From contig CANNHN010000005.1 in the NCBI GenBank assembly GCA_947504725.1, positions 37,704-101,703 of the forward strand: 64,000 bases of DNA, in the 5' to 3' direction. A model generated the notes under the pieces. It saw only the letters and a program-made list of their open reading frames with translations, searched no databases and was not told the origin of the DNA. Made by a program: the position numbers and the translations under genes. This DNA is from Bacteroidota bacterium. Its GTDB lineage: Bacteria; Bacteroidota; Bacteroidia; 2-12-FULL-35-15. Positions 11,475 through 64,000 of this stretch are shown here, in pieces (position 1 is the stretch's first letter; every line of letters begins with the position of its first letter).

Positions 11475-11483
11475 AATAGTGTA

Positions 11484-12542: not shown

Positions 12543-12592
12543 ATTAATTTAAAACATAGTTTGATTTTATTTAGCAACCTAAATTAGAACCA

Positions 12593-13315: not shown

Positions 13316-13351
13316 TTTTGTGCTTTACAATAAATTTTTACATTTAGTAAA

Positions 13352-13966: not shown

Positions 13967-13970
13967 TCTC

Positions 13971-14090: not shown

Positions 14091-14151
14091 GTTTTTTATT
14101 GCAAAGTACCGCAATCCGAATTATGGAATTATAAAGGCAGTATTATCAAAT

Positions 14152-37916: not shown

Positions 37917-40900
37917 TTGAATAAATTTTACTCTAAATATTTATATTCCTTATTCGTTATAACACTTTTTTTTGGTGTTGTAAATTCTGTACATTCCCAA
38001 GAATTTAAATTCACTCACATCACTTCAGAGCAAGGCCTTTCTATGGGTGTTGTTAATTGTGTTTTGCAAGATAGTAGAGGTTTTATGTGGTTTGGTACTC
38101 AAGATGGATTGAATAAATATGATGGTTATAACATCACTGTATATAAGAATAACCAAATTGATTCCAATTCTCTTTCCAATAATTTTATCAATACTTTATA
38201 CGAAACTAAAAACGGTGAACTTATTATTGGAACCAATGGTGGTGGATTTGATGTTTACAATTTAAGTTCGGGAAAGTTTACACATCACATCGGTTTACAA
38301 AGCAATAAAAATAGTCTCAGCAATAACAATGTAAAATCCATTTTAGAAGATAAAGAAGGGTTGTTGTGGATTGGTACAGATGATGGATTGAATTCGTATA
38401 ATCAAAAAACAAAAAGATTCACCCGTTATCTTAATGACAATAAAAATGCAAATTCTATTTCTAATAACAATGCCTGGTGTTTGTTGGAAGCAACTGATGG
38501 TAAGTTGTGGATTGGTACGTATGGCGGAGGATTAAATTCTTTTGATAAGCGAACAGGGAAGTTTGAACATTTTAATCAGTTTAACAATTCAGGTAGTTTA
38601 TTGTATGAAAACATTAATCTAATTAGAACGATTTATGAAGATAAAGAAGGAATGTTTTGGATTGGAACTTTCGGTGAAGGCGTTCAGATTTTTGATCCGC
38701 ATTCAGGAAAATTTATCAAAAATATTAGAAATTCAGAATCGGATCCCAATTCATTAAGCAACGATAGAGTCTTGAGCATTAATGAAGATATGAATGGAAT
38801 CTTGTGGATTGCAACATATGGTGATGGAATAAATTTATACAATAAAAAAACGGGTAGATTCAGAAGCATTTTACATGATGAAAAAATTCTTACAGGTTTA
38901 AGTAGTAATCAGATAAAATGTATTTACCATGATAAAGTAGGTTCGGTTTGGATTGGAACAGAAGGTGGCGGAGTAAATGCTCATTTTAGAGCATCTAGCA
39001 AGTTTAAGTTTTTTACGAATCATTCAGGATCAGCAGAAGGCTTAAAAAGTAATATCGTTTATGCATTACTAGAAGACAGGGATGGTCTTTTGTGGATTGG
39101 AACAGGTAGGGGGGGCTTGTCAACCCTCGACAGAGAGACGAATACCTATCAACATTATCCTCAATTATCCAAAGGTGCAAATGAATCAATTCTTTCTTTG
39201 TGCGAAGATTCAGATGGGATTATATGGGTTGGGACATGGGGGAATGGCTTGTACTCATATAATAAAAAAACAAAAGAAATTATTTCTTATCCCGAATTTA
39301 AAGAAGTAAATGCTGGGACTATCGTTTCTGTTTTTGAAGATGCAAATGGTAACATTTGGGTAGGAACATATGGAGCAGGGGTGTTTTTTTACAATAAAGC
39401 GAGTACCAATTTCACTAAGTATGATAGTAGTAATGGGCTAAGCATTAATAATATTTATAATATATATCAGGATAGTAAAAAAAATATTTGGATTGCTACT
39501 GATGGTGGAGGAGTTGTTAAATATAATTCTGAATCAAATGTTTTTAAAACGTATAATCGAGATGAAATGCTCAATAGTATTAGTTCAAATTCCGTTAATT
39601 GTTCTTATGAAGACAAAGAAGGAAATATGTGGTTTGGGACAACGAATGGGTTGAATAAGCTAGATGTGAAAACTGGAAAATTCGAAGCGTATTTTGAAAA
39701 AGATGGTTTGCCGAATGATTTTATTTATTCATTGCTTCCTGATAGCAAAGGTAATTTATGGATGAGCACTAACAAAGGTGTTTCAAAGTATAATCCTAAA
39801 ATAAAAAATGAAAACGGTGCTGCTTTTAGAAATTATGATGTGAATGATGGTTTGCAAGGATTAGAGTTTAATCAAGGGGCTTATCATCAATGTGAAGATG
39901 GGGAAATATTTTTAGGAGGAGTAAATGGATTCAATGTTTTTTACCCAGATAAAATCCAAGACAATCCCAATGTTCCTCAAATACATATTATTTCCTATAA
40001 ACGTTTTGGTAAAGAAGTGCTTTTGGATACTTTAATTTATGATAAACAATATTTAGAACTAACGTATAAACAGAATTTTTTCTCATTTGATTTTGTTGCA
40101 TTGGATTATCAAATGCCTGGAAAAAACAAATACTCCTACATGTTGGTAGGCGTTGATGAAGATTGGTCGCCACCAAGTACACAGCGTTACGCAAGTTACA
40201 CTGAATTGAGTGGAGGTGATTACATTTTGCGAGTACGTGGAGCAAATAATGATGGGACATGGAACAATGAAGGAGTCACACTTCACATTCGTATTAATCC
40301 CCCATTTTGGAAAACGAAATGGTTTTACACACTTTGTGTTGTTTTAGTCATTGGTGGATTTTGGGGTTTCTTGAAATACAGAACAAGTTCGATTAAGCGC
40401 GAAAATAAAATTCTTGAAGAAAAAGTTGAAGAACGAACGCAAGAATTAGCTCAAAAAAACAAGGATATTACCAGCAGTATTCAGTACGCTAAACGAATTC
40501 AATTGGCTATTTTGCCTCCTTTGGAACAGATTTTCAAACATTTCCCAGAATCGTTTGTGTTATATAAACCTAAGGATATTGTGAGTGGAGACTTTTATTG
40601 GTTTGGAGTGAAAGATGGTAAGAAGATAATTGCAGCGGTTGATTGCACTGGTCACGGTGTTCCAGGTGCATTTATGAGTATGATCGGGCATAACTTGTTG
40701 AATCAAATTATTAGCGAAAATGGCATTACTCAGCCCGATGAAATTTTGAATGCCTTGCACCGAGGGGTTCAAGCAGCCTTAAAACAAGGAACAAATGTGG
40801 TGGATACGAGTGATGGAATGGATGTAGCGATTTGTTGTATTGATACCGCAAACAATGAATTGAAGTATGCAGGTGCTTATCGACCTTTATTTATTGTAAA

Positions 40901-41219
40901 TGGGGTAAAATTCGACAAAGTAGAAGCAGATAAAAACCCAATAGGTGGTTCTCAATTGGATGCGGATCGTAAGTTTACCGCTCATAGCATTAAAATTAAC
41001 AAAGGTGACACATTCTATATGGCATCGGATGGTTATGCCGACCAATTTGGTGGTGAAAAAGGTAAAAAATTCATGGTTAAACGATTCAATGAATTGATGT
41101 TAGAAATGCAGTCACAGAGCATGGAAGAGCAATGTATAACGTTGGATGAAAAGTTTGAAAACTGGCGAGGCTCTTACCAGCAAATTGATGATATTTTGGT
41201 AATCGGAATAAGATTTTAA
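37917..41219 (+). CDS. Periplasmic beta-propeller (Reg_prop) + Y_Y_Y + TM + PP2C phosphatase
   Basis: About 14 'ED..G.LWIGT..GG' repeats, YTELSGGDYILRVRG, one TM, PP2C motifs as in 36348-37751. Confidence 0.93.
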   Translation: MNKFYSKYLYSLFVITLFFGVVNSVHSQEFKFTHITSEQGLSMGVVNCVLQDSRGFMWFGTQDGLNKYDGYNITVYKNNQIDSNSLSNNFINTLYETKNGELIIGTNGGGFDVYNLSSGKFTHHIGLQSNKNSLSNNNVKSILEDKEGLLWIGTDDGLNSYNQKTKRFTRYLNDNKNANSISNNNAWCLLEATDGKLWIGTYGGGLNSFDKRTGKFEHFNQFNNSGSLLYENINLIRTIYEDKEGMFWIGTFGEGVQIFDPHSGKFIKNIRNSESDPNSLSNDRVLSINEDMNGILWIATYGDGINLYNKKTGRFRSILHDEKILTGLSSNQIKCIYHDKVGSVWIGTEGGGVNAHFRASSKFKFFTNHSGSAEGLKSNIVYALLEDRDGLLWIGTGRGGLSTLDRETNTYQHYPQLSKGANESILSLCEDSDGIIWVGTWGNGLYSYNKKTKEIISYPEFKEVNAGTIVSVFEDANGNIWVGTYGAGVFFYNKASTNFTKYDSSNGLSINNIYNIYQDSKKNIWIATDGGGVVKYNSESNVFKTYNRDEMLNSISSNSVNCSYEDKEGNMWFGTTNGLNKLDVKTGKFEAYFEKDGLPNDFIYSLLPDSKGNLWMSTNKGVSKYNPKIKNENGAAFRNYDVNDGLQGLEFNQGAYHQCEDGEIFLGGVNGFNVFYPDKIQDNPNVPQIHIISYKRFGKEVLLDTLIYDKQYLELTYKQNFFSFDFVALDYQMPGKNKYSYMLVGVDEDWSPPSTQRYASYTELSGGDYILRVRGANNDGTWNNEGVTLHIRINPPFWKTKWFYTLCVVLVIGGFWGFLKYRTSSIKRENKILEEKVEERTQELAQKNKDITSSIQYAKRIQLAILPPLEQIFKHFPESFVLYKPKDIVSGDFYWFGVKDGKKIIAAVDCTGHGVPGAFMSMIGHNLLNQIISENGITQPDEILNALHRGVQAALKQGTNVVDTSDGMDVAICCIDTANNELKYAGAYRPLFIVNGVKFDKVEADKNPIGGSQLDADRKFTAHSIKINKGDTFYMASDGYADQFGGEKGKKFMVKRFNELMLEMQSQSMEEQCITLDEKFENWRGSYQQIDDILVIGIRF

Positions 41220-41318
41220 ACTATATCGCTCCATTTTCGACATATTTTTGAGAAATTGCAAAAAATACCTATATTTGATGTTAGGATAAAACATTGAGAA
41301 ACTAAAAAAACCAATAAC

Positions 41319-42143
41319 ATGAAACGTATTCTATATTCATCACTTTTATTTGTTTCTGCAGTTACTGCATTAACTCTTAGTTCTTGTAAAAAAGAAGATC
41401 CAGATACGGAAACGCAATCAGCTATTGATAATAGTGTTTGCGAAGGAGAATTTACTGGAAGATTGGGAATAATCAATAGTATAGCTATCAAAGAACAAGG
41501 AGTAAAATCAATGAGAGCAATAGGTCAACCGATTATTTCATTTGTTGCCGCTGATACTCTAGATGGTTTTCCAATCACAATGTATCTTGATTATGGAACA
41601 GGAACAACAGATCCTGTTGATGGAAAAACACGAAAAGGACAAGTAACGGCAAAATTTAGTAATTCTTGGGATGCTTTAGGAACAAATGTAACGGTTAAGT
41701 TAATCAACTATTACGTTAAAACGGCTACTGGTGCTAATTTCGTTCAATATGCATGCGATAGTATAATGATTGGTCACCCTACTGCAGCAACGTTCACTAA
41801 TGATATTATTGGTGGAAAATGTGTTGCTGCTACTTGGAACCTAGAATGGTCTTGTAATAGAACTTTAACGCAAACAGCTGGTTTGGGTGATACGCTTTTA
41901 ACGAACGATGTTTATCAGTTTACAGGTAATGCAGTAGGAAAGACTCGCGAGGGTAAAGGATATACTGTAAACGTGGTTTCTCCAGTTACTAAGAGCATGT
42001 CTTGTACTTGGATTCAATCTGGTAGAATTGATTTAACGCCAGAAGGAAAAGCTACTCGTACCGTAGATTACGGAACTGGTCTTTGTGATGATCAGGCAAC
42101 GCTTACTATCAATGGTAATTCTTTTGCTTTTACCATGAATTGA
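41319..42143 (+). CDS. Uncharacterised lipoprotein, probably surface exposed
   Basis: Lipobox LSSC followed by KKED (acidic export-signal-like); DYGTG..D motifs; own -7 box TATATTTG at 41270-41277. Confidence 0.8.
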   Translation: MKRILYSSLLFVSAVTALTLSSCKKEDPDTETQSAIDNSVCEGEFTGRLGIINSIAIKEQGVKSMRAIGQPIISFVAADTLDGFPITMYLDYGTGTTDPVDGKTRKGQVTAKFSNSWDALGTNVTVKLINYYVKTATGANFVQYACDSIMIGHPTAATFTNDIIGGKCVAATWNLEWSCNRTLTQTAGLGDTLLTNDVYQFTGNAVGKTREGKGYTVNVVSPVTKSMSCTWIQSGRIDLTPEGKATRTVDYGTGLCDDQATLTINGNSFAFTMN

Positions 42144-42230
42144 TGAATCCATGAAAATCCTTATTTATTAAGGTTTTTCGAAAGATTGCAAGGATAAATT
42201 AATAAGGAGTAAATAATTAGTGTTTGCTGT

Positions 42231-42259
42231 TTGATTAATAAAACTTATTTATATATTTG
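42231..42259 (+). promoter_or_regulatory. siaBC promoter: TTG-N18-TATATTTG
   Basis: TTG 42231-42233 and exact -7 box 42252-42259. Confidence 0.65.
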
Positions 42260-42310
42260 CTTTAATTAACTAAACAGAATTGTCAGCTTTATCGATTTAA
42301 CTTAGTGTTT

Positions 42311-42856
42311 ATGATGTTAGATATTTACGATTTTTATGATAAAATGGAGCGTAATAATATTATGCTCTCTTTTAAAGGTGATATCACTTCTGAATTACTT
42401 ACCTCCATATTGCAAATAATGGAATCCAAATTGGATAATTTGCAAGAAGAACCTAAAATTAAAAAGAAAGTTTACAACGTATTGGTTGAGTGTCTTCAAA
42501 ACCTGTATCATCATATGGATGAAGTTGCTCCTGAAGAAAATGATGCTATTCGATCTGCAATCTTCATGATTGGCAAGTTGGATAATCAATACAACATTGT
42601 AACAGGAAATTATATTAAAAAAGAAAACGTAGAAGGATTAAAGAAACGTTTAGAGGATATAAATTTATTATCGAAAGAAGAATTAAAGGAATATTACAAA
42701 GCTGTTTTAAATAATGGTGAAATGTCAATGAAAGGTGGAGGTGGATTAGGAATGATTGATATCGCGCGTAAAACAGGAGAGAAATTGAATTTTAACTTTT
42801 CTCCAGTAGACGATAAATTTTCATTTTTCAGTTTAAATATTAAAATATCACAATAA
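42311..42856 (+). CDS. siaB: SiaB family protein kinase (DUF6272)
   Basis: FKGDIT.ELL, LVECLQNLYHH, TGNYI, ELKEYYK, GGGLGMIDIARKTG. Confidence 0.88.
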   Translation: MMLDIYDFYDKMERNNIMLSFKGDITSELLTSILQIMESKLDNLQEEPKIKKKVYNVLVECLQNLYHHMDEVAPEENDAIRSAIFMIGKLDNQYNIVTGNYIKKENVEGLKKRLEDINLLSKEELKEYYKAVLNNGEMSMKGGGGLGMIDIARKTGEKLNFNFSPVDDKFSFFSLNIKISQ

Positions 42857-42866
42857 AAATAAGATT

Positions 42867-43247
42867 ATGGAAACAATTTCAATTGAAGGAACACCAAAAA
42901 CACCAACAATCATTTTTGATACTGGAAAAGGCTTTTTGGAAATTAAGGGACGCTCTATACCTGAAAACTCTATTGAGTTTTACAAGCCATTAGTGGATTG
43001 GTTAGAAAAATATGCTGCGAAACCTCAGGCTGCTACAAACGTAAATGTTCAATTAGAATATTTTAATACAAGTTCATCTAAATGTATTTTAGATGTATTT
43101 AAGAAATTGGAAGCTATTAACAAAGGTGGAAGTACAGTTGTTATTAACTGGTACTATGAAGAAGATGATGAGGATATGTTAGAAGCGGGTGAAGATTATC
43201 AAGCAATCATCAATGTGCCTTTTAAAATGGTTCAAGTAGCTGAATAA
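42867..43247 (+). CDS. siaC: SiaC family phosphoprotein (DUF1987)
   Basis: T.KTP.I.FD, GRSIPEN, LEYFNTSSSK (Thr68), WYYEEDDEDM.E.GED. Confidence 0.92.
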   Translation: METISIEGTPKTPTIIFDTGKGFLEIKGRSIPENSIEFYKPLVDWLEKYAAKPQAATNVNVQLEYFNTSSSKCILDVFKKLEAINKGGSTVVINWYYEEDDEDMLEAGEDYQAIINVPFKMVQVAE

Positions 43248-44806: not shown

Positions 44807-47800
44807 TTATCGTCCTTTTTTTCTGCTTAATTTACTAAACAAAATTTCTAAACCTGTGATTAATTTTTTAAGCATGTCGAAATAAAGTGTTATTGCTAAT
44901 ACTAGCGACATTCCCCAGATTACAAGAATATTTACATTATATGTATCGTAATATTTGCCAAAGAATTTTTTACGTGGCGCAAAAAAGTGCGCTCTTCCCA
45001 TATCAGAATCTACTGGATCTAAATAAATAGGGTCAATTTTTTGAACATAAGCTCCATCTAAATCCAAAATACGATAAGGCGTATTTCTATTTGTTACCAA
45101 GTCTTGTAAACTTTCATTTTCATATTCGTTTTTGTCTTTAATATATTGTAAACGAGAAACGCTATCCTTATTCATTAAGCTAACTTCTTTTTCTCTTAAA
45201 GTAGTAGCTCGTTTGAAATTGTTCAAATACACATTTCTGAGTGTGTTGTTTGTGAAGTCTCGCACCTGATTTGCAACAGTGGGGCTAAATGAGACAATAT
45301 TCAAGTTGTCAAATCCACCACATTTTAATTTCTCGTTTCCTGGTACATTTATTTCTTTGCGTATTTCATTTTGAATCATCTTTAAAGCATCTTCTACTTC
45401 TTTTCTGCTTTCTGCTTTTTTGTAATTCGATTCACAAAAATCAATTTTTTTAGCAATCTCAGTTAACCAATAATCTTTTTTGTAAGTAGCAACGTGAATT
45501 GCTTTGTCGAATTTGTATGTTTTTTTGGTGAATTTGTTGTCTTTAAATTGCTTTACTGCCAATGCTTCAAATGCCCATCTAGAAGCCATCATATCGCCAA
45601 CCAACGGCACAACACTTTGTGAGGTAATGATTGGGTTTAATTTATCGAATTTCACCATTACACCACTAAACAATAATTGTGGAATAATTAAAATAGGAAT
45701 TAATATATATATTGTAACTGCTGAATTGAAACTTGAAGAAATGTTTAATCCTAACATATTAGCAAAACAGAATGTGCTAAATAATAAAATCCAATATTGG
45801 AAAGTCATTCCTTGAATTTCTAAAACGTAATTTCCAACTAATACAAACAAAATGGCTTGTATTGATGATAAAGAAAACATGATAATTATTTTTGACCACA
45901 AGTAGCTTCCCTTACTTAAGTTTAAAAAAGATTCGCGTTTTTGAATTTTTCTGTCTCTAATAATCTCTTCTGCACTCACTGTTAGTCCAATAAATAAAGA
46001 AACTACCACAGACATAAACATATAGATAATAATGTTTTCGTTTTCACGGAATGTGTACCCTACTTTATTTGATAAATCTAGATTTACAAATTTAATGAAG
46101 TATGCAAGGATGAAAGCAAGTAAAGGTGCTTCTAAAAAATTGATAGAAATGTACTGTGTGTTTGTCATTTTCGACAAGACATCACGTGTGATAAATACTT
46201 TGAATTGTTTGAATTTATTTGGAATTCTAAATGTGCTTTCTGGAATTTCAGTAATGTTTTCAACTTCCTCAATCGATTTCTCAATCTTCTCTCTGTAATG
46301 AACGTTCCATTCTGATGGAGAAACTTTTCTGTTACGAGTTATGTTACCGTACTCGTCCAATACTTTTGATTCAATAATATTGAATACTTGTTCGGGATTT
46401 ACGTTACCACATTCTATACATTCACTTTCGTTACTGTTTACATGATTAACAACAGTTTTAAAATAGATAACAGAATCTACAGGATTGCCATAATAAATTG
46501 GATATCCACCAACATCGAGAATCATCAACTTGTCGAACATTTTAAAAATGTCTGACGATGGCTGATGGATAACTACAAAAACCAACTTGCCTTTTAAAGC
46601 AAGTTCTTTAAGTAAGTCCATAATGTTTTCTGAGTCACGAGATGACAAACCAGAAGTTGGCTCATCAACAAATAAAACAGATGGTTCACGTATTAACTCT
46701 AAAGCAATATTCAGTCGCTTACGTTGTCCCCCTGAAATTGTTTTTTCTAATGGGCTACCTACTTTTAAATCTCTTGTTTCAATTAATCCAATGCTTGTTA
46801 AAACATCAGTTACCATTTGAGTAACAACTGCGTCTGTTTTATTTCCGAAACAAAGTTTAGCATTGTAAAATAAATTTTGGAAAACGCTCAACTCCTCAAT
46901 TAATAAATCGTCCTGTGATACGTGACCAATTACTCCTTCAACTTTTGACTTTTCGGAATGTATGTTGATTCCATTGATTTTTACCGAACCACCACTCGGA
47001 ATTTCCATTCCGTTCAAAACGTTTAGTAGGGTAGATTTTCCGGCCCCTGAGCCTCCCATTATTCCTATAAGTTTTCCGGAATCTTCACTGAAATTGATAT
47101 CGCGTAAACCTAATTTCCCACCTTTAAATTTAAATTCTAAGTTTTTTACAGCAAATGATACTTTTGCTTTTGAAGTATCACTCATAAAAGAACTTAAAAT
47201 ATCACTATAATAAACAGGTTTTACTTTTGAACTTCTAAGAGATGATCCAGGAGTTAAGATGAAAACTTTTCCTTGAGTTAGTAATTGTCCATTTAGTAAA
47301 ATATCGCTTTTGCCATAATATAATAAGGCATACATATTCACACTTTGAATCCACAAAATGCGTGCTTGTCCAGTTACACCTTCAGCGTAAATATGTTTTG
47401 TTTCTTTTAAGTTGTGTGATGTTTTGTTGTCGATGATAAGAATTTGTGGTGATTCTGGAATATTCTCTATACCAGCTCTCACAAATTGCATAGAACGTTT
47501 AAACTCTTCATCATCAATGTTAAATGTTTCCGCAACCGTAGTTACGAATTCCATTTCTTGTTCAGCGATTTCAGTGTTGGAATTAATAAATTCAATTAAA
47601 CGAAGTAATACAACAACTTTTTGAACTTGCGTAAGCTCTCCATTTATTTGGGTACAAATCTTTAAAATTTTAACAGAATTAAGGGAAGTGCGTTTTGCTG
47701 TTCCATCTTTCTTTTTTGTAACTTGGTGGTGAGCTTCAAGAAATTCATCAAAAATTGCCAAGTATTGTTCAACAAGCTCTTGATTTAATTGTTGTTTTAA

Positions 47801-47899
47801 AAATGATTGTACAATTAAACGTCCATTGTCATCAATGCCATCAACTCTTGCAATAATTGCAAACATTTGCATGAGGGCCTTTAATATTCTTTCACTCAT
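44807..47899 (-). CDS. TerB-like domain + ABC ATPase + ABC-2/ABCG permease fusion with a large extracytoplasmic domain
   Basis: N-terminal helical TerB-like region; GGSGAGKS, ISGGQRKRL, FVDEPTSGL, VIHQPS (White/ABCG-like); TM block with EEIIRDR.I..RE, PQLLFSG, SRWAFEAL. Confidence 0.88.
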   Translation of the reverse strand: MSERILKALMQMFAIIARVDGIDDNGRLIVQSFLKQQLNQELVEQYLAIFDEFLEAHHQVTKKKDGTAKRTSLNSVKILKICTQINGELTQVQKVVVLLRLIEFINSNTEIAEQEMEFVTTVAETFNIDDEEFKRSMQFVRAGIENIPESPQILIIDNKTSHNLKETKHIYAEGVTGQARILWIQSVNMYALLYYGKSDILLNGQLLTQGKVFILTPGSSLRSSKVKPVYYSDILSSFMSDTSKAKVSFAVKNLEFKFKGGKLGLRDINFSEDSGKLIGIMGGSGAGKSTLLNVLNGMEIPSGGSVKINGINIHSEKSKVEGVIGHVSQDDLLIEELSVFQNLFYNAKLCFGNKTDAVVTQMVTDVLTSIGLIETRDLKVGSPLEKTISGGQRKRLNIALELIREPSVLFVDEPTSGLSSRDSENIMDLLKELALKGKLVFVVIHQPSSDIFKMFDKLMILDVGGYPIYYGNPVDSVIYFKTVVNHVNSNESECIECGNVNPEQVFNIIESKVLDEYGNITRNRKVSPSEWNVHYREKIEKSIEEVENITEIPESTFRIPNKFKQFKVFITRDVLSKMTNTQYISINFLEAPLLAFILAYFIKFVNLDLSNKVGYTFRENENIIIYMFMSVVVSLFIGLTVSAEEIIRDRKIQKRESFLNLSKGSYLWSKIIIMFSLSSIQAILFVLVGNYVLEIQGMTFQYWILLFSTFCFANMLGLNISSSFNSAVTIYILIPILIIPQLLFSGVMVKFDKLNPIITSQSVVPLVGDMMASRWAFEALAVKQFKDNKFTKKTYKFDKAIHVATYKKDYWLTEIAKKIDFCESNYKKAESRKEVEDALKMIQNEIRKEINVPGNEKLKCGGFDNLNIVSFSPTVANQVRDFTNNTLRNVYLNNFKRATTLREKEVSLMNKDSVSRLQYIKDKNEYENESLQDLVTNRNTPYRILDLDGAYVQKIDPIYLDPVDSDMGRAHFFAPRKKFFGKYYDTYNVNILVIWGMSLVLAITLYFDMLKKLITGLEILFSKLSRKKGR

Positions 47900-49698: not shown

Positions 49699-50592
49699 CT
49701 ATTGAATTATGAATTTTCCTTTAGATAGTATGCTGTTGAAGCTATTTACTTGATAGATGTAATTGCCTTTTGATAGAGTGCCTTCCTCTATTATTACTTT
49801 GTTGCTAGTCAGATTCCCGATTTCTATCACTTTTTTACCCGACATATCAAATATGCTTACAATTGCCGACTCTAACTGCTCAAAATTAGTATCTATTACT
49901 AAAGTTGCAGAACCTGTAAATGGATTTGGGAAAACGGTGGATGATAACAATGAGTTTGCATTTTCTATAATCGACATAGGTGTTTCAGGTATGTTGATTC
50001 TGTCGATATACAAAGTTGGTAGCTCCCAAGTAGAGTCGTTCCACATATAATATTTGCTAGAATTGAACATAATAATGATAGAATCAGGCGTTACTCCTGG
50101 CATTAAGTCGTTGATGTTTACTGTAAACGAAGTATAGCTTGCTGTTGCAGGCAAAGTTTTTACCGAATAAGCAACAGTATCGCGCGACATCGTCAAGGTA
50201 TTGTAACGTTTTAAAACAACTGTAACTTCTGCAGAATCTCCTGTGCCCTGATCGTTGTATTTATAAAACCCTGAAAATGTAGTAGGTTTTGAAGTAAAAG
50301 GTGTTCCTGATTCCATAAAACTGCCATAATCCAAAGGAGGTTGACCATTTACCATAACTCCTGGAGCAATTCCGCAGGCAAACCATCCTTGAATTTTTGT
50401 TGCGTATGTACCTTGGAAAGCATCTGTAGTTTGTTTTACAGTATTGCAATAAAATGGCCACCAGTTAGTAGGAACAGTATCTGGCGAATAAGAACTTGTA
50501 GTAGTCCAACTTTCAAACCCCGGGTTCGATAGTGTTTGTCAATTCATACTTAAGCCTGCTAAAAGTAAGAATGCAATTAGTGATTTTCTCAT
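49699..50592 (-). pseudogene. T9SS type A cargo protein (PCMD-like domain + CTD) interrupted by an in-frame TGA
   Basis: MRKSLIAFLLLAGLSMN*(TGA 50541-50539)QTLSNPGFESW... continues in frame into the track ORF 50355; CTD VFPNPF...IFDMSGK...LSKGNYIY...GKFIIQ; -7 box TACATTTG at 50622-50629. Confidence 0.8.
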
Positions 50593-56338: not shown

Positions 56339-56920
56339 ATGAAATTTAGTTGTATTTATTTCTTTGGTCTTTTAGTATTGATAAGCTCTTGCGGACCAGA
56401 AAAAATAGGAGAGGTTAAAAATGGAGTTGCTATTGTTGATACAGTTGCCTCACAAGAGCCTGCTGTTTCTGAAACCTACAGATTGGAAACTTTCCAGAAC
56501 ATGGAGATGATAGAATATTGTTTGTTGCTTCCTTTAAGTGAATACACATTGGTTGACGAAAAAAGTGAAAAGGCGGCTCATTCGTTTATTCATAAAACGA
56601 AAAAAGACAATACAATTGCTATTCAAGGCTTGTTGAGAGCCAATTCGGAAGTTTCAATTGAAGAGTATTTTAAAAATTCATTGGAAGATGCTGAATTGGA
56701 AGGAAAAATTATTGAGAAAAAAGAATTGAAAAAAGACAAGAATTGTTTTTATGCAAAAGGCTATTGGAACAATTCAATTCATGAATCTCGTTTTATAGAA
56801 GTATGTTGGTTGCGGAGCGATGAGGTAGTGAAATATTATTCCTCTTTTGATATTGCAGATACTACATTGTGGAATAAACGATTGGAAGAAATTTTGAAAT
56901 CCGGCAGCGTTTGTAAATAA
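56339..56920 (+). CDS. Hypothetical lipoprotein
   Basis: Lipobox ISSC; no family recognised. Confidence 0.7.
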   Translation: MKFSCIYFFGLLVLISSCGPEKIGEVKNGVAIVDTVASQEPAVSETYRLETFQNMEMIEYCLLLPLSEYTLVDEKSEKAAHSFIHKTKKDNTIAIQGLLRANSEVSIEEYFKNSLEDAELEGKIIEKKELKKDKNCFYAKGYWNNSIHESRFIEVCWLRSDEVVKYYSSFDIADTTLWNKRLEEILKSGSVCK

Positions 56921-56947
56921 CGAAGCCCCGATTTCTCGGGGGCTTCG
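56921..56947. terminator. GC-rich hairpin between convergent genes
   Basis: CGAAGCCCCGA-TTTC-TCGGGGGCTTCG. Confidence 0.6.
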
Positions 56948-56968
56948 TCTCCAACCCTACCACCCCAA

Positions 56969-58564
56969 CTATTTTACTTTTATTATCATTGGACTCATTG
57001 CTACAACAATTCCATCTGGTCCCATTCCTTTTATTTCTTCAAAAAAGATTCGTTCATTCTTTTTTACTTTTTGTAAGCGTGTTATCATTGCAGATGTAAG
57101 CATGTTAGATGTTGAAAAATAATCTTCTGCAATTCCTCCGCTTATAAAACTCATTGTGAATGAAGTTACAACAGGTTTTGATTCGTATTCAAAAGAAGGA
57201 TAAAATGCGATTAATCCTTTTTGAACAGTAATCGTTCCTTTGTTCACACTTCCGCTTTCAGTCATTTCAGCAAATTTTGCACTTGGTTTTGGAATTCTTC
57301 TTACTCTGAATTCTTGAACACCCATATTTCTTTTTTCGCCATTCTCTAAATTTGCGATTACAGAAACATTTACAACTCCGTCAGTGATTGGTTTTATTAT
57401 ATACTTTCCATTTCCTTGGCTTATCATTATGGCATTTGATGCCGATACTGTGAGTTTTTCATTTGGAACACCAGGGACAGAAACCGAAATTGGATTTTCT
57501 AATCCTCGATATACTAGATTCATGTTTTCAGCTGCAACAGTTAATGATGGCTTTGCAACAATGTATTCCGATTTGAAAGGATAAATCATTTCTTTTCCTT
57601 TTGGAGAAATTACTTTCACCGTTCCAGAATAGGTCATGATTCCTTCTTTGTTGGTACTTGCTACATATTTTCCTAATCCTCGTTCAACTGGAATTGCATT
57701 TGGTGTTCCATTAAACGATTTGCTTGCTTCATTGTAATCTCCCACCATAACTTCAGGATTTCTAGTTTTATTGAATGCTGCAAGAAAAACTTGTGCTTTG
57801 TATTCTTCACCCAACATTACATAATTACTTTCCGGAATTACTTTTGCTGCAATCGTATCAAACTTCATCGTTTCTACATCCATCTCTTTTAATAAATAAT
57901 CAACAGTAGTTGCTTCTGCATTTTTTACATCGTTTTTTAGTTTTGATAAAATCGTAAGACTAGCTACTAATGGACGGTCATAAAAATTATACAACTCCCA
58001 ATTCTCATTTTCTTCACTGAATTTCGGGTCATCTGTATTGATGTCTAATTTTACTTTTGACTTATCTTTCGGTAAAATATAACTGCTTAATTGTGTTCTG
58101 TATGCATTCAATCTGTTTTTTAAATCGCGTGAAGCACCAGCAGAACCATCTTCCGAATTGCCAATTAAAATATTAGTTGGAATATTGTAGTCATCTTTGT
58201 TTTCGATGCTTGCCATTTGAATGGTGTCTGCAACACTTTGCTCCAATCCTTCTGTTTTTGCAATCAACTCTTTTTGAAGTTTATCAATAAAATCATTTAA
58301 TTCTTGAGAACGCTTTTTTACATCCTGTGCTTTTTTCCAGTTGGGTGTTACTTTTACTGGATCTACACTCTTCGCTAAATCGAACATCGAGTAAAGCGTT
58401 TCGTTATTGTCAGTAAAATTGATGTTTGTGTTTTCCAATCCTTTATTTACAATTACAAAAGCATCTAAAATGTCTTTGGAAACATTCAATGCTAAAAGAC
58501 AGGTAAGTACTAAGTACATCATACCAATCATTTTTTGTCGTGGGGTGTCTTTTGCTGAAGCCAT
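56969..58564 (-). CDS. gldM: GldM/PorM T9SS-gliding motor rotor protein (no gldK/L/N adjacent)
   Basis: TPRQKMIGMMYLVL..LLALNVSK.ILDAF N-terminus with R9 and Y17; F...PLVA.LT.LSKL.NDVKNAE; NLVYRGLENPISVSVPG; FRVRRIPKP. Confidence 0.92.
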   Translation of the reverse strand: MASAKDTPRQKMIGMMYLVLTCLLALNVSKDILDAFVIVNKGLENTNINFTDNNETLYSMFDLAKSVDPVKVTPNWKKAQDVKKRSQELNDFIDKLQKELIAKTEGLEQSVADTIQMASIENKDDYNIPTNILIGNSEDGSAGASRDLKNRLNAYRTQLSSYILPKDKSKVKLDINTDDPKFSEENENWELYNFYDRPLVASLTILSKLKNDVKNAEATTVDYLLKEMDVETMKFDTIAAKVIPESNYVMLGEEYKAQVFLAAFNKTRNPEVMVGDYNEASKSFNGTPNAIPVERGLGKYVASTNKEGIMTYSGTVKVISPKGKEMIYPFKSEYIVAKPSLTVAAENMNLVYRGLENPISVSVPGVPNEKLTVSASNAIMISQGNGKYIIKPITDGVVNVSVIANLENGEKRNMGVQEFRVRRIPKPSAKFAEMTESGSVNKGTITVQKGLIAFYPSFEYESKPVVTSFTMSFISGGIAEDYFSTSNMLTSAMITRLQKVKKNERIFFEEIKGMGPDGIVVAMSPMIIKVK

Positions 58565-58640
58565 GATTTCTGAGTTTTTTTAAGTTTATATTAAACTTGA
58601 ATTTTGCCTCATAATGCTAGCTAAGAAAAAAAGATACAAT

Positions 58641-58669
58641 AAAAAACGCCACAAGATGTGCATGTGGCG
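58641..58669 (-). terminator. Intrinsic terminator 77 nt upstream of gldM
   Basis: Minus strand CGCCACA-TGCACATCT-TGTGGCG-TTTTTT. Confidence 0.75.
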
Positions 58670-58726
58670 CTATGAGGGAGTAGCCTCATGAAAAAACAAT
58701 AAAATTGGACACTAATTTAAGTGACA

Positions 58727-58843: not shown

Positions 58844-61144
58844 TTAAATACGAATTCCAATAACACAGATGTCGTCCACTTGTTCTAAATGGGATTTCCA
58901 TTTATTTATAGCTGACTTAAGCAAGTCTCCTTGTTCGACCAAGGGTAATTTGGCTATGCTTAACAATAATTCTTTTAATTGTTTATACATGAATTTTTTA
59001 CCATTCGGACCTCCGAATTGATCAGCCATTCCATCTGTGAAAGTGTAAACTACATCCTCTTTTTGTAACTGAATGGTATGTTGAGTAAAAGAAACAGAGT
59101 CTTTGTCATGTTTCCCAACCGGCATTTTGTCTGGTAAAAAAGCAAGGATTTCATTTCCTCTTGCAATCCAAACGGGATTGTTGGCAGAAGAGTATGTTAG
59201 TTGCTTCTTTGAAAAATCAAAACTGATCAGACTACAATCCATACCGTCTTTTCCACCTTCTTCACTTCCATCATTCGATAAATGATGAATGATTCTTGCA
59301 CGTGTATAGTTTAAGATTTCATTTGGTGCAGTTAATTGTTGTCCATTCACTGCTTCGTTCAAGCATGAAATATTTAGCATGCTCATGATGGCGCCTGGTA
59401 CTCCATGTCCCGTGCTATCTGCCGTTACCAATGCAAATTGGCCGTTTTTTAATTCACTAGCCCAATAGAAATCTCCACTAACAATATCTTTTGGTTGGAA
59501 AAAAATAAAATGATCTGGTAAATTAGTATTTAAGAATTGTTTACTAGCTAGAAGCGAATGTTGAATCCGTTTCGCGTAATTAATACTGTCGGTGATTTCG
59601 CGGTTCTTTTCCTCAACCAATATTTTTTGTTTTTCAATGTATATGTTTTTTTCTTCCAACAAGCTGTTTGCTTTCTGTTTTTGACGATAGCTGCGATAAG
59701 CAAAAACAGCAAAACATAAAATTAAAAATCCTACAAAACCAACAAAGTATAATATAATGGTTTGTTTTCTTCGTTCTGCAATGTTTAATGCATCCTTTTT
59801 TTCCTGCTCTGCCTTTACAATAGATTCTTTTTTGTCGAATTCATATTGCATTTGTGATTCAACAAGTTTTTTTGAGGTCTCCTGATTTACTAGGCTATCT
59901 CTGTATAGAATAGCCATTTTATGATGTTCGAAAGCTTGTTTCCAAAATTTTCCAGGACCGCTGTTTGGTGTTTGAAATCCTGCTGCCTGTGCACTGTCTA
60001 ATTCAGCTAAACCGCTGTATGTATCTTTAATATAATCTTTGGCTCCAATTTCTTTTGATAGTGTTAATCCTTTGTCAAGATATTCTAACGCTTCTTTGAA
60101 TTTCTTTTGCTTTGTGAAAATTACTCCAATGTTAGTGTAGCAATTAGCGATGCCATTTTTATCTTCAAGTTCCTCTGCAAGTTTTAAAGAAGCGAGTTGA
60201 TTTTTTAAAGCATCTTCATAATTTCCTTTGTTTTTATAAATAATTCCAATGTTATTATACGACATAGCGATTCCTCTTTTGTCGCCTATCTCTTCCATTA
60301 TCTTTAATGAAGCCAGTTGATTTGCAAGTGCTTCGGTGTAGTTGCCTTGCAAGTAATGTATGATTCCAATGTTGTTGTAGGAAGACCCGATTCCATTTTT
60401 ATCACCGATTTCTAATCTGATTTTCAAAGAAGCCAATTGATTTTTTAATGCTTCTTTATAGATATTTTGTGAATAATAGATGTTGCCAATATTGTTGTAA
60501 CAATTAGCAATTCCTTGTTTGTCGCCTAATTCTTCTCTGATTTTTAAGGATGAAAATTGATTTTTTAAAGCATCTGAATAATTTCCTTGTAAGTGGTATA
60601 CGTTGCCAATATTCATGAAACAAATTGCCATTCCATTTTTGTCATTTATTTCTGTTCTGGTTTTTAGAGAAGACAGGTGATTCTTTAATGCTTCGGAGTA
60701 GTTGCCTTGAGCATAATAGATATTTCCTATGTTGTTATAAGATCCTGCTATTCCTTCTTTATCGCTAATTTCTTCCCTAATTTTTAATGAGATTGAATAA
60801 TTTTTTAAAGCATTTTTGTAATCTCCTTGATTGTCGAAAATAATTCCAATATTATTATACGCTTTGCCTTCGCCTTTTTTGAACCCTATTTTTTTTGAAA
60901 CAGCCAATGCGTCATTGGCATATTGATTTGCGCTTGAGTAATCTCCTGTATTCCTTATTTCTCTGCAAAGATTATTGAGGGTGTTGACTTTTGTAGTGTC
61001 TTCTTTGCTAACTTTTATAAAGGATTTAAGTGAGTCGATAGTTTGATTTTGTGCAGAAAAATTTGAATTAAAAAAAATGAATAACATAATCAAAAGAAAG
61101 TTTTTCAAATCTATCTTTCTGTATATATAACTATGGTAATTCAT
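58844..61144 (-). CDS. Periplasmic TPR sensor + TM + PP2C phosphatase
   Basis: Signal ending SAQ; 40-aa repeats DK.GIA.SYNNIG.IY..QGNY..AL...L.SLKI.EE.G; TM; SINYAKRIQ, DIVSGDFYW, DSTGHGVPGA, DDICVIG. Confidence 0.93.
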   Translation of the reverse strand: MNYHSYIYRKIDLKNFLLIMLFIFFNSNFSAQNQTIDSLKSFIKVSKEDTTKVNTLNNLCREIRNTGDYSSANQYANDALAVSKKIGFKKGEGKAYNNIGIIFDNQGDYKNALKNYSISLKIREEISDKEGIAGSYNNIGNIYYAQGNYSEALKNHLSSLKTRTEINDKNGMAICFMNIGNVYHLQGNYSDALKNQFSSLKIREELGDKQGIANCYNNIGNIYYSQNIYKEALKNQLASLKIRLEIGDKNGIGSSYNNIGIIHYLQGNYTEALANQLASLKIMEEIGDKRGIAMSYNNIGIIYKNKGNYEDALKNQLASLKLAEELEDKNGIANCYTNIGVIFTKQKKFKEALEYLDKGLTLSKEIGAKDYIKDTYSGLAELDSAQAAGFQTPNSGPGKFWKQAFEHHKMAILYRDSLVNQETSKKLVESQMQYEFDKKESIVKAEQEKKDALNIAERRKQTIILYFVGFVGFLILCFAVFAYRSYRQKQKANSLLEEKNIYIEKQKILVEEKNREITDSINYAKRIQHSLLASKQFLNTNLPDHFIFFQPKDIVSGDFYWASELKNGQFALVTADSTGHGVPGAIMSMLNISCLNEAVNGQQLTAPNEILNYTRARIIHHLSNDGSEEGGKDGMDCSLISFDFSKKQLTYSSANNPVWIARGNEILAFLPDKMPVGKHDKDSVSFTQHTIQLQKEDVVYTFTDGMADQFGGPNGKKFMYKQLKELLLSIAKLPLVEQGDLLKSAINKWKSHLEQVDDICVIGIRI

Positions 61145-61280: not shown

Positions 61281-62105
61281 TTATTCGCTCATTAAAGCGC
61301 CATCAATACTATACTCAACACCTGTAACTACATCTTCTACTTTTGCATCACTAGCCATTTCAAAAGAAGTTTCTGTAACATTTACATGTCCATCAGATGC
61401 ATAATAGTATTTTGCATGATCCATGCTTGCCAAGGTTGGTGTAGCAAGATCACTAAAGTCAAGTAATTGACCAATTGCAATAGTTCCTGATGCACCATCG
61501 TCAAAAAAGCCAAATTCAAAACTACCTTCTCCAGCTGTACCAACTACAAGAAAAATAGCTAAGTTGTTAATCATAAAATCTGTTCCATCTATTTCTCCAT
61601 CAATTGCTACAATTGCTCTTAATTCAGCACTTCCAGCAATACTGCCCCAGTCAGGATCCGCAGATGTTACTTTGATACCTAATACATAATTGTAGTCAAA
61701 ACTTTTTCCGTTGTAAGATAATTGACCTAAGCCACCACCTGTTGATTCAGAAAAAGTATAGGAAGTTGTAGGTGTTGTTGGATCACTCCATGAATAAACA
61801 GTTCTAGCAGGATCTGAATAGGTTGTTCTGCCGAATGTAACGTTTGAGTATATGTTTGTTCCGGATCCAGCACTTGTAAAACTTTGTTGACTTGAACCAC
61901 CTGCCTGAGCTGTAACAAAACCGCGAAGAATCCTTTGGATGTTCTGACGCATTTGTTTGTTTGCAGGCGAGGTAGTATTGTTTGATTTAGCGATGCTCAG
62001 TTGTTTTTCCTTTTGACAAGAAGCTACACTAAGCAAAATCATCAACAAAGCTGGATAAACAAACATTTTCCCCAACATGTTTGATAAAAACGAAAATTGT
62101 TTCAT
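61281..62105 (-). CDS. Hypothetical Ser/Thr/Gly-rich lipoprotein
   Basis: Lipobox VASC-QKEK; beta-rich composition; start could be further downstream. Confidence 0.75.
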   Translation of the reverse strand: MKQFSFLSNMLGKMFVYPALLMILLSVASCQKEKQLSIAKSNNTTSPANKQMRQNIQRILRGFVTAQAGGSSQQSFTSAGSGTNIYSNVTFGRTTYSDPARTVYSWSDPTTPTTSYTFSESTGGGLGQLSYNGKSFDYNYVLGIKVTSADPDWGSIAGSAELRAIVAIDGEIDGTDFMINNLAIFLVVGTAGEGSFEFGFFDDGASGTIAIGQLLDFSDLATPTLASMDHAKYYYASDGHVNVTETSFEMASDAKVEDVVTGVEYSIDGALMSE

Positions 62106-62133
62106 GTTATTTATATTTTAAGAGGTTAAATAA

Positions 62134-62153
62134 GAGGGAGTATTAACTCCCTC
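62134..62153 (-). terminator. Intergenic hairpin between the OMP and lipoprotein genes
   Basis: GAGGGAGT-ATTA-ACTCCCTC 8-bp stem, weak U-tail. Confidence 0.5.
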
Positions 62154-62174
62154 ATTAAAGATAAACAATATTCT

Positions 62175-62921
62175 CTAGAAAATATATCCCAAACGAATTG
62201 CGCTATTAAAATTTGGTCCAAAATTAACTTCTCTTCCTTGGCTGCTTGGATCAGGATTTCCTGGATCTACTGCTGGAGGTGTAACAGCTGGGTAAGTAGA
62301 AGGATAAGTTGTAGTCATTTTGTGGTCACTGTATTTTACCATTTGGAAACCAAAACCAAATTCAGTTCCTAAATACAAATGCTTTGTAATGTAACAATCA
62401 AAACCTGCTACAACGTTAGCTCCAACTCTGAAAAAACCACCTTTGTTTTTGTTTTTGTCAGTTTGAATTACAAATTGGTCTGTTGTTCCGCCTGCATCAA
62501 GTCCTGTTGGAGTAACTTCTTTTGAAGATTGTCCGGCTAAATCTAATTCAGCTCCAATATATGGGCTCAAGCGATTTGTTCCAGCAAAGTGTTTTTCATA
62601 ACCTGGTCTGATATTCCAACCAAATTGTCTTTTTTTGTAATCCTCAGATACTGTAGTTCCCGCTGTTAAGTTTGAATTAAAAACAGAGTCTGCTTTGGTA
62701 GATGAATAGCTTAATCCAATTCCTAAACGGAATGCAGTGCTTTCGCTTAAAAATCTTCTGTAGCGAATGTATGTTAATTGAATTGGTTTACCATTTAATG
62801 GAACAAAATTCAATTCTAAATTATTTGCTTTTGCAGCAGGTTTAAAGTCTGATGCATCTTGTGCCATTGTTAAAGTGCACACAGATAAAAAAAGTGCTGA
62901 TGTAGTAATAGTTTTTTTCAT
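62175..62921 (-). CDS. Outer-membrane beta-barrel protein
   Basis: ATG 62921 MKKTITTSALFLSVCTLTMAQ signal; amphipathic strands; terminal RLGYIF. Confidence 0.82.
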   Translation of the reverse strand: MKKTITTSALFLSVCTLTMAQDASDFKPAAKANNLELNFVPLNGKPIQLTYIRYRRFLSESTAFRLGIGLSYSSTKADSVFNSNLTAGTTVSEDYKKRQFGWNIRPGYEKHFAGTNRLSPYIGAELDLAGQSSKEVTPTGLDAGGTTDQFVIQTDKNKNKGGFFRVGANVVAGFDCYITKHLYLGTEFGFGFQMVKYSDHKMTTTYPSTYPAVTPPAVDPGNPDPSSQGREVNFGPNFNSAIRLGYIF

Positions 62922-62947
62922 GATAGGATTTATTTGGTTTATATGCA

Positions 62948-63019
62948 CAAAAGTATATATGCTTTTGTGTGCACACAATCCGTATGGGTGGGTAAATTTG
63001 TATCCGTACTAGTACGGAT
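62948..63019 (-). promoter_or_regulatory. Operator-like element (copy 1) with promoter TTG-N20-TACTTTTG
   Basis: Perfect 18-bp palindrome ATCCGTACTAGTACGGAT (63002-63019) within the 41-bp element from 62978; -7 box 62948-62955. Confidence 0.75.
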
Positions 63020-63050: not shown

Positions 63051-63698
63051 TTAGTCGATCAGCTTGTTTTCAATCGCAAACTTTATTAGCCCTACAGCGC
63101 TTTTGGTATTCGCTTTTCTGAAGATGTTTTTTCGATGTGTTTCTACAGTACGCTCGCTAATAAATAGGGCTTCACCAATTTGAGCATTACTATATTCTTT
63201 TGCAATAAGTTGAATGATCTCTTTTTCTCGCTCCGTAAAATAAATTTTGTTCTCGCCTTCTTTTTTTTGTCCCCGCTCGCTAAGTGTTTTCATCATCTCA
63301 GCAGAAATCTCATCACTAAAAAACATGCCTCCTGCAGCAATTTTTGTTAATGCATTTATTAGTTCTGTTTTTCCTGTGTTTTTTAAAATATAACCAGATG
63401 CACCAGCATCTAGCATTTCGGAGATGGTACTTCTTTCACCAAACATGGAAAGCACAAGCACTTTTATTTCAGGATGATTTTTTTTAAGCAAACGAGTAAA
63501 TTCAATCCCATTCATTTCAGGCATATTGATATCGCTTAAAACAATATCAGGAGTGTTTTTTTTTATTAATTCAATAGCGATGCTTGCTTTTGTAGCTTCT
63601 CCCACAATAGTAAACGCATTTTCATTATGTAATAAAGCTTTTATACCGTCAACCAGCATTTGATGGTCATCCAAAATAAAAAGTTTGATTTTGCTCAT
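63051..63698 (-). CDS. NarL/FixJ-family (LuxR HTH) response regulator
   Basis: ILDDH, LSDINMPEMNG, LSM, GASGYILK; TEREKEII.LIA..YSN.QI...LFISERTVETHRKNI; ATG 63698. Confidence 0.95.
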   Translation of the reverse strand: MSKIKLFILDDHQMLVDGIKALLHNENAFTIVGEATKASIAIELIKKNTPDIVLSDINMPEMNGIEFTRLLKKNHPEIKVLVLSMFGERSTISEMLDAGASGYILKNTGKTELINALTKIAAGGMFFSDEISAEMMKTLSERGQKKEGENKIYFTEREKEIIQLIAKEYSNAQIGEALFISERTVETHRKNIFRKANTKSAVGLIKFAIENKLID

Positions 63699-63714
63699 AT
63701 TGTAAAAATACGAA

Positions 63715-64000
63715 TTATTTGATAGGAACTTCAATGCTTACTGTGGTTCCTTTTTCAGGGCGTGAATCAAAATTAACATTGCCGTTGAGGTATTCGATTC
63801 TAGATTGAATGTTTTTTAATCCGATACCTTTTTCCATCACTTTGTTTAGGTCAAATCCAATTCCATTGTCCTCAATCATCAAGGTTAACTCATCGTTATG
63901 ACGTATGATTTGGATATTAACAACAGTTGCCTGAGAATGCTTGATAATGTTGTTTACTAATTCTTGAAGCACTCTAAACAAAACTGTTTCCATAGTGCTT
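63715..64000 (-). CDS. C-terminal HATPase domain of a NarX/UhpB-type histidine kinase (partial)
   Basis: LFRVLQELVNNIIKHS, IEDNGIGF, GIGLKNI, G..GT.V; frame stays open past the window end. Confidence 0.92.
   Translation of the reverse strand, partial: STMETVLFRVLQELVNNIIKHSQATVVNIQIIRHNDELTLMIEDNGIGFDLNKVMEKGIGLKNIQSRIEYLNGNVNFDSRPEKGTTVSIEVPIK

Follow-up and report, generated by a model that had tools for sequence, protein, structure and literature searches.

A gldM gene encoded alone in a Bacteroidota genome belongs to a distinct clade of GldM/PorM paralogs

Locus and question

GldLM/PorLM is among the few known ion-driven rotary motors, and the usual view is of an invariable unit whose genes form a single operon. 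The locus described here raises the question of what a gldM gene does when it stands alone, outside a gldK-gldL-gldM-gldN cluster. The gene lies in a stretch of 64,000 nucleotides from a Bacteroidota bacterium (GenBank assembly GCA_947504725.1, contig CANNHN010000005.1, positions 37,704 to 101,703 of the forward strand); this whole stretch is called the window below, and coordinates are those of the window unless another locus is named. Its product is a member of a distinct, old clade of GldM/PorM paralogs, which we name solo GldM, and is most suitably classed as a new subfamily of an already known family. An earlier note on this DNA, written from the sequence without database searches, had read the gene as an extra rotor lying outside gldKLMN and under the control of neighbouring regulatory genes, and the parts of that reading are taken up below where the evidence bears on them. 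The gene itself is the following feature.

56969..58564, minus strand: solo gldM coding sequence, with an N-terminal transmembrane helix (R9, Y17) and periplasmic domains D1-D4; identified by open reading frame, Pfam, TIGR03517, PDB and Foldseek matches, and the ratio of nonsynonymous to synonymous substitution rates (dN/dS)

Identity of the gene product

Calling of open reading frames (ORFs) over the 64-kb window gave gldM as an intact ORF of 531 amino acids. Pfam places four domains in order along the protein, namely GldM_1st (PF12081) at residues 31-226 (E 1e-39), GldM_2nd (PF21601) at 230-338, GldM_3rd (PF21602) at 341-422, and GldM_4th (PF12080) at 425-531 (E 4.5e-9), and the NCBIfam equivalog model TIGR03517 ('type IX secretion system motor protein PorM/GldM') gives it a score of 320.9 bits, the cut-off being 180. 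The closest PDB chains by sequence were Porphyromonas gingivalis PorM (7cmg, 1.4e-50) and Flavobacterium johnsoniae GldM (6ys8, 2.5e-33), and GldM of Schleiferia thermophila (7sau) matched the N-terminal third of the protein. An AlphaFold2 model has a mean predicted local distance difference test score (pLDDT) of 70.7, with values above 85 in D3-D4, and its secondary structure consists of helices over residues 30-227 and strands over residues 240-530, corresponding to a helical D1 followed by beta-rich D2-D4. When the model was used as a Foldseek query, the top PDB matches were 7cmg, 6ey4, and 6ey6, all of them PorM/GldM, with a TM-score of 0.79 on PorM D3-D4. By family-model score, by the presence of all four Pfam domains, and by its periplasmic shaft fold, the protein is thus a GldM/PorM.

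R9 and Y17 of GldM face GldL. The N-terminus of the window protein reads MASAKDTPRQKMIGMMYLVLT, with R9 and Y17 at the positions that they occupy in F. johnsoniae, and the protein has a single N-terminal transmembrane helix with Arg9 and Tyr17 (PRQKMIGMMYLVLT). Both residues are invariant across 33 clade members. The earlier note had described a full-length GldM of 531 residues with these two residues at the F. johnsoniae positions; the ORF, the four Pfam domains, and the TIGR03517 score bear out the first statement and the N-terminal sequence the second. Its further statement that R9 and Y17 matter for the motor agrees with the literature, in which Y17 of GldM is invariant, R9 is highly conserved, and both are important for motor function (bioRxiv 10.1101/2020.05.11.089193).

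Relatives, gene order, and phylogeny

A search of a protein collection returned more than 120 protein clusters that are 55-88% identical to the window GldM, all of them from uncultured Bacteroidia. In each neighbourhood that was read, including those of the 88%-identical relative, a 1.35-Mb contig, and a 4.52-Mb contig, gldM is solitary and faces priA-DUF218-pfk-rlmL in convergent orientation; in the window, priA comes next beyond the 193-amino-acid putative lipoprotein downstream of gldM. A genome scan was also performed with one genome per GTDB species, using the patterns QKMI[GS]MM and KFDT[IV]AAK and taking the best 80 of 567 matches. ORFs of the loci were called and then clustered, and the cluster names were later confirmed by Pfam labels.

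Canonical loci, in which GldM is 33-40% identical to the window protein, have the order topA-arginase-porP-gldK-gldL-gldM-gldN. Solitary loci (L010-L020, L023, L025, and L060; 35-78% identical) have gldM without any canonical-cluster neighbour, and this solitary arrangement was seen in about 20 related loci. In a set of 90 loci, the copies flanked by gldK-gldL/gldN all fall on one side of a split and the solitary copies all fall on the other. In a neighbor-joining tree of 219 GldM proteins, one branch separates solo from canonical proteins with a bootstrap of 176/200, and by this bipartition the window protein falls outside the clade of operon-encoded GldMs. Phylogeny and synteny of orphan copies, which the earlier note had proposed as a check, therefore give these genes a clade of their own and a solitary setting. 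About 26 of the 150 best representatives at 50% identity fit a solo profile better than a canonical one, a figure that is approximate for deep branches. The position of the canonical loci relative to the window lineage could not be read from flanking genes, of which too few were homologous.

These data bear on the explanation of a split operon, according to which the window gene would be the sole gldM of its genome, moved away from gldK-gldL-gldN and still doing its ordinary job. The gene is not flanked by gldL and gldN as it would be in a gldK-gldL-gldM-gldN cluster, and a Pfam scan of the whole 64 kb found no gldK (FGE-sulfatase), GldL_N, or GldN among the other ORFs, just as the earlier note had said; this absence fits a split. 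So does the lack of a canonical locus in any of the seven species of the window subclade among the best 80 of 567 matches, although absence from those best 80 says little. Against a split, the solo copies form a separate clade and are not nested among the canonical ones, and further evidence comes from related genomes and from the distribution of constraint along the protein, as described in the next two sections.

A block with the order ACP phosphodiesterase-PAP2-LytTR response regulator-histidine kinase-M61 peptidase-cyclophilin-M23 peptidase-WG-repeat lies at 3425-14727 of the window, 42 kb from gldM, and directly adjoins the solo gldM in a sister subclade (L017:11799-21595, L103:7755-13605). 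Solo gldM has thus moved between subclades, and its upstream element, described below, was kept. The sister subclade has canonical operons in which gldM is followed by two to four gldN genes in tandem (L095:11653-14866, L029, L053).

Coexistence with a complete operon in related genomes

In related genomes, solo gldM coexists with a complete operon elsewhere, and four genomes were found with both a solo gldM and a complete porP-gldK-gldL-gldM-gldN operon. One is a single contig of 4,962,732 bp (JGI 3300037313|Ga0395908_0000001), which carries porP-porP-gldK-gldL-gldM-gldN-gldN-gldN and, about 122 kb away, a solo gldM; since both are on one contig, binning is not an issue here. The metagenome-assembled genome (MAG) palsa_969 (PLXK01) has a solo locus (L017) and a canonical locus (L046) with GC contents of 44.8% and 45.4% and a tetranucleotide correlation of 0.96, and the MAG X1_MaxBin.021 (VBWE01) has a canonical locus (L029) and a solo locus (L103). 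The fourth genome, MAG_38 (JAJNQB01, GCA_021155045.1), lies inside the window's own subclade. Its solo protein (L013) is 64% identical to the window protein, its contig 1 carries a canonical porP-gldK-gldL-gldM-gldN-gldN operon (L098), and the two contigs correlate at 0.986 in tetranucleotide composition.

The solo and the canonical copy of the same genome are 35-42% identical. Across genomes, the solo-solo and canonical-canonical identities run parallel (64/74, 47/48, 44/50, 47/50, 45/50, and 49/47%), and the branching orders of the solo and canonical subtrees agree, which fits joint vertical inheritance of both paralogs. P0191 is a canonical GldM from the subgroup that forms the counterpart of the window subclade. 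It is encoded on a gldK-gldL-gldM scaffold from the lake metagenome series GROS21-1, which is also the series that holds the window's gene, and the link between the two is circumstantial.

The presence of both copies in the window-subclade MAG JAJNQB01, on the 4.96-Mb contig, and in two further MAGs tells against a split operon. It also supports, together with the separate solo clade, the earlier note's claim of an extra gldM outside gldKLMN; the note had held that a gene found to be the only gldM of its genome would speak against this claim, and in these four relatives the solo gene has a canonical companion.

Selection and domain constraint

Comparison of the window gldM with its 88%-identical ortholog (L005) gave a dN/dS of 0.088 overall at dS 0.79, and by region 0.028 for the transmembrane helix and D1, 0.057 for D2, 0.18 for D3, and 0.19 for D4. 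Solo gldM is under strong purifying selection and is not decaying; a ratio near 1, which the earlier note had named as evidence against its reading, is replaced by one of 0.09.

Domain constraint was compared on sequence pairs matched for overall identity. In pairs that are 55-65% identical overall, D1 is 66% and D4 40% identical between solo proteins, against 50% and 63%, respectively, between canonical proteins, and in pairs that are 65-80% identical overall, D4 is 50% identical in solo and 81% in canonical proteins. The constraint is thus inverted in solo GldM, D1 evolving more slowly and D4 much faster than in canonical GldM. Several solo proteins have lost the PF12080 (GldM_4th) match altogether, and a conserved D4, the PorN/PorK-binding tip, is not a feature of the solo proteins. 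The N-terminus and transmembrane helix, by comparison, are about 85% identical between solo and canonical paralogs, and 21 near-invariant positions in this region, R9 and Y17 included, are the same in both. In PorM, D4 is by itself sufficient for PorN binding, and D2-D4 are required for PorK (PMC5790014). With its transmembrane helix kept and its D4 loose, solo GldM would retain its seat in the GldL ring and would be freed from the constraint that the GldK/GldN ring imposes on the tip. That the PorN-binding D4 is far less constrained than in canonical GldM is a further point against a split operon, an explanation that we regard as very improbable.

Conservation of the GldL-docking helix makes it plausible that solo GldM uses the GldL stator. 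GldL of the operon that partners the window subclade has conserved LYGFG, MFKI, MHW, and STEAV stretches, which we take to hold the equivalents of Y13, K27, H30, and E49 of F. johnsoniae GldL. The solo protein might instead work with another stator of the inner membrane, for example a GldL paralog with its gene at some other locus, and so form a fully separate machine. This alternative agrees with the position of solo gldM, which is apart from gldL in every locus, and with the solo-specific conservation of D1, the domain seated on the periplasmic loops of GldL. It is judged improbable, however, since the identity of the 21 N-terminal and transmembrane positions in solo and canonical proteins is what would be expected for the same GldL ring and no second GldL_N gene occurs in the loci read.

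Transcription unit and upstream element

Three features delimit the putative gldM transcription unit in the window.

58611..58638, minus strand: promoter-like bipartite element TGTATCTTTT-N13-CATTAT(G), ending 47 nt before the gldM ATG
58639..58689, minus strand: two hairpins and a U6 run, intrinsic-terminator-like, between the stop of the upstream TPR-SpoIIE gene and the gldM element
56919..56949, minus strand: terminator-like hairpin just 3' of the gldM stop, between the convergent genes (scan match 56941-56926)

In 13 of 13 distinct solo loci of the window subclade and its sister subclade, TGTATCTTTT is invariant and is followed by N13 and (C/T)ATTATG, and the element ends 40-61 nt before the solo gldM start in all of them, whatever gene stands upstream. 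The 10-mer TGTATCTTTT has a single occurrence in the 64-kb window. Genes for extracytoplasmic function (ECF) sigma factors are typically preceded by a promoter of the kind that the factor itself recognizes. In L012 and L014, an ECF sigma gene stands next to solo gldM, and the same bipartite element was found 44-67 nt 5' of it; the element also precedes a sigma ORF in L015, the start of which is uncertain. The sigma gene beside solo gldM matched only the generic ECF model TIGR02937 and no specific equivalog. The element common to solo gldM and the adjacent sigma gene would place solo gldM in the sigma regulon, and an alternative (ECF-type) sigma factor probably controls it.

The hairpin region upstream of the element folds at -20 kcal/mol (z = -4.27), with none of 200 shuffles folding as well; it was missed by a simple terminator scan owing to its 9-nt loop. 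The hairpin 3' of gldM folds at -21.7 kcal/mol (z = -2.8), and with such hairpins both before and after it the gene looks monocistronic. The Bacteroidetes -7 box TAnnTTTG is absent upstream of the window gldM, and a sigma-70 scan found sites no more numerous than in shuffled sequence. A conserved structure of the 5' leader RNA (TGAGG...CCTCA) was considered and rejected, as RNAalifold gave no conserved pair and Rfam no credible match.

A variant of the element, TGTATCTTTT-N12-GTTATA, stands 46-64 nt 5' of the arginase gene or porP that heads canonical porP-gldKLMN clusters in seven loci, so that the solo and canonical copies may be partly under common control. Another ECF-promoter-like motif, GTAACCTTAA-N12-CGT(T/A)(T/A)A, which differs from the solo element, lies 40-90 nt 5' of canonical gldK in both subclades. 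The sites are as follows.

L029:5008, L036:4790, L049:4873, L053:5189, L058:5076, L090:3035, L095:5182: TGTATCTTTT-N12-GTTATA
L098:2500-2545, L101:105-140, L024:7520-7550, L095:7390-7425: GTAACCTTAA motif

Proposed control by neighbouring genes

The genes around gldM from which the earlier note had drawn its regulatory reading are these.

58844-61144, minus strand: TPR-TM-SpoIIE (PP2C-type) protein of 766 amino acids, upstream of gldM (Pfam)
56339-56920, convergent with gldM and downstream of it: putative lipoprotein of 193 amino acids, with no family match in Pfam or NCBIfam
63051-63734, minus strand: LuxR-type response regulator, 4.5 kb upstream of gldM
63715-63993, minus strand: histidine-kinase fragment; three genes lie between the regulator/kinase pair and gldM

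The note was right about the PP2C gene upstream, which is SpoIIE by Pfam, and about the convergent lipoprotein downstream, which is the 193-amino-acid ORF. Its proposal that the PP2C/two-component genes nearby turn on the extra rotor is not supported. The proposal draws some strength from the six genes from the kinase through gldM, which are all on one strand, and from 4 of about 20 loci (the window, L004, L011, and L016) in which one of the three genes 5' of solo gldM is for a SpoIIE-type sensor. Such sensors are somewhat over-represented close to solo gldM, accounting for 4 of 96 genes within three genes of it, and are not among the listed families of farther genes; three of the four nearby SpoIIE genes are mutually orthologous, and they therefore represent at most two independent events.

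The gene directly 5' of solo gldM varies. It encodes the TPR-SpoIIE protein in the window, Amidase_3 in the closest (88%-identical) relative and two others, a Reg_prop/Y_Y_Y-SpoIIE sensor in L004 and L011, and a lipoprotein in L016, and it is an unrelated housekeeping gene elsewhere; L016, which has an otherwise similar arrangement, is without the TPR-SpoIIE gene of the window. The terminator-like hairpin (z = -4.27) stands between the SpoIIE gene and gldM, and the conserved element accompanies gldM and not the upstream neighbour. PP2C sensors are moreover abundant, with three in 64 kb, one of them beside a SiaB/SiaC-like (DUF6272/SiaC) pair, and the PP2C protein does not belong to a two-component system. 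The LuxR-type regulator lies 4.5 kb off, and its adjacency to gldM is not conserved. By the hairpin and the variable neighbour, neither co-transcription nor conserved linkage with regulator genes is indicated for solo gldM, and control by these neighbours is highly improbable.

A gene for an outer-membrane beta-barrel protein, with weak, sub-threshold matches to PorG and OMP_b-brl, and a gene for an unassigned lipoprotein lie together at 61281-62978 on the minus strand of the window, with a counterpart at L016:8267-9869. The pair is found 5' of solo gldM in the window and L016 and was not seen in the other loci, and in the window the TPR-SpoIIE gene intervenes.

Candidate mechanism

Of the explanations considered, the one to which we lend about an even chance is that solo GldM is a second rotor, with a shared GldL stator, a different distal partner, and its own sigma-linked promoter. 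A dimer of solo GldM would insert into the same GldL pentamer as canonical GldM does, giving GldL5-(solo GldM)2, and the proton-motive force would turn these units like the canonical ones. The outer-membrane-proximal tip of solo GldM would bypass the conserved GldK/GldN ring and couple to another partner that varies with the lineage, so that the cell would have motor units of two kinds that differ in output. Expression would be from its own promoter with TGTATCTTTT-N13-CATTATG, through an alternative sigma factor. The earlier note had spoken of a rotor that could be swapped into the GldL stator; judged from the protein sequences, this idea is plausible, and the shared transmembrane helix and divergent D4 now make it sharper. 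The broader proposal of a widespread family of second rotors in uncultured Bacteroidia, using the same GldL ring with a fast-evolving outer partner and a dedicated ECF sigma switch, is put forward tentatively and is the less probable of the two.

Several observations weigh against a second rotor as set out here. No neighbour gene is conserved across the solo clade that would hint at the distal partner, and T9SS (type IX secretion system) cargo genes number 9 of 96 within three genes of solo gldM and 7 of 88 four to seven genes away. The cognate ECF sigma gene is not in the 64-kb window, and the assignment of -35 and -10 boxes to the upstream element is our own interpretation. Occurrence of the variant element at the heads of canonical clusters suggests that the two copies may be co-expressed and may not alternate. 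The D4 of the window protein is confidently folded, matches GldM_4th, and is under selection at a dN/dS of 0.19, and may yet bind GldN. Finally, it was a same-subclade MAG and the shared metagenome series, and not the genome of the window itself, that supplied the canonical operon, and three of the four cases of coexistence are binned MAGs.

A linkage of solo gldM to modules of T9SS cargo, type-B C-terminal domain, or PorP genes was suggested by L012, L018, and L093 and was rejected, as there was no enrichment.

Some of the same observations would be accommodated by a modulator, in which case solo GldM would compete for GldL rings or form heterodimers with canonical GldM and would tune or brake the existing machine with no separate output. 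The nearly identical transmembrane helices of solo and canonical GldM, the lack of a dedicated GldL, GldK, or GldN paralog beside solo gldM in any locus, the loosely constrained solo D4, and the co-expression suggested by the 10-mer variant at canonical cluster heads are all in keeping with this. The retention of four full-length periplasmic domains over deep divergence, with D1-D3 conserved at least as well as in canonical GldM, nevertheless exceeds what a simple competitor would need, and the solo D4 is still under purifying selection (dN/dS 0.19). A modulator is accordingly considered unlikely, though less so than a separate stator.

If solo GldM is indeed a second rotor, a conserved second GldM with its docking helix kept and its PorN-binding tip freed would mean that the motor may be modular, with one stator for several periplasmic or outer-membrane devices, and one stator would serve two mechanically distinct outputs. 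The questions that this raises for researchers on the T9SS and gliding motility are what the distal end of GldM must bind and whether the output of the motor can be re-targeted.

Comparison with known systems

Solo GldM has in common with canonical GldM/PorM (6ys8, 6ey4, 7cmg) the single transmembrane helix with R9 and Y17, the four-domain shaft, and a score above the TIGR03517 cut-off; it differs from them in being encoded alone, with its own element and terminators, in belonging to a separate clade, and in having a tighter D1 and a looser D4. Since both paralogs pass the TIGR03517 cut-off, annotation pipelines name both 'GldM', and T9SS predictors based on presence and absence can take a solo copy for the core gene.

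Flagella have exchangeable stator sets, MotAB with PomAB or MotCD, in which the ion-conducting stator is swapped around one rotor. The likeness lies in the alternative paralogous components of one rotary machine; by analogy, the candidate for exchange here would be the central GldM inside the same GldL ring. GldJ is a GldK-like lipoprotein of the FGE-sulfatase type that is encoded apart from gldK and has its own function on the outer-membrane side. Like solo GldM, it is a paralog of an operon-encoded T9SS/gliding core protein at a separate locus, but solo GldM is a motor shaft and belongs to a different protein family.

Paralogous T9SS core components within one genome are known from GldN/GldO of F. 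johnsoniae (PMC9127263), and solo GldM likewise represents a duplicated core component within one genome. Unlike gldO, which adjoins gldN and is partially redundant with it, solo gldM is about 122 kb from the operon in the one contiguous genome and belongs to an old clade. In P. gingivalis, the PorXY-SigP system uses an ECF sigma factor to drive T9SS component genes (PMC4800418, PMC8265659). Solo gldM resembles this system in having an upstream element in common with an ECF sigma gene in relatives; it differs in that the adjacent sigma gene matches only TIGR02937, so that identification as SigP could not be made, and no PorX-like regulator is nearby. Full-text literature searches found no description of a GldM paralog. 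A brief reference to 'extra orthologues of porM' in F. johnsoniae, without detail, is made by Leone et al. (2018).

Other genes of the window

At 18195-19565 on the plus strand lies the gene for a T9SS plug protein (T9SS_plug_1st, E 7e-43), and at 49699-50355 on the minus strand that for a small Por_Secre_tail cargo protein; these genes indicate that the organism has a working need for a T9SS. A 1030-amino-acid protein in which a TerB-like N-terminal domain is joined to an ABC ATPase and an ABC-2 permease is encoded at 44807-47899 on the minus strand and is near priA and gldM in all close relatives.

A partner-switch module resembling SiaABC occupies 38043-43247 on the plus strand and consists of four genes.

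38043-41219, plus strand: Reg_prop/Y_Y_Y-SpoIIE sensor phosphatase
41319-42143, plus strand: unassigned lipoprotein
42311-42856, plus strand: DUF6272 protein, which we take to be a SiaB-like kinase
42867-43247, plus strand: SiaC-family phosphoprotein

The third SpoIIE protein of the window is encoded at 36348-37751. A protein of the GH3 family (acyl acid amido synthetase-like), a family best known from plants, is encoded at 29983-31518 on the plus strand and has all three GH3 domains.

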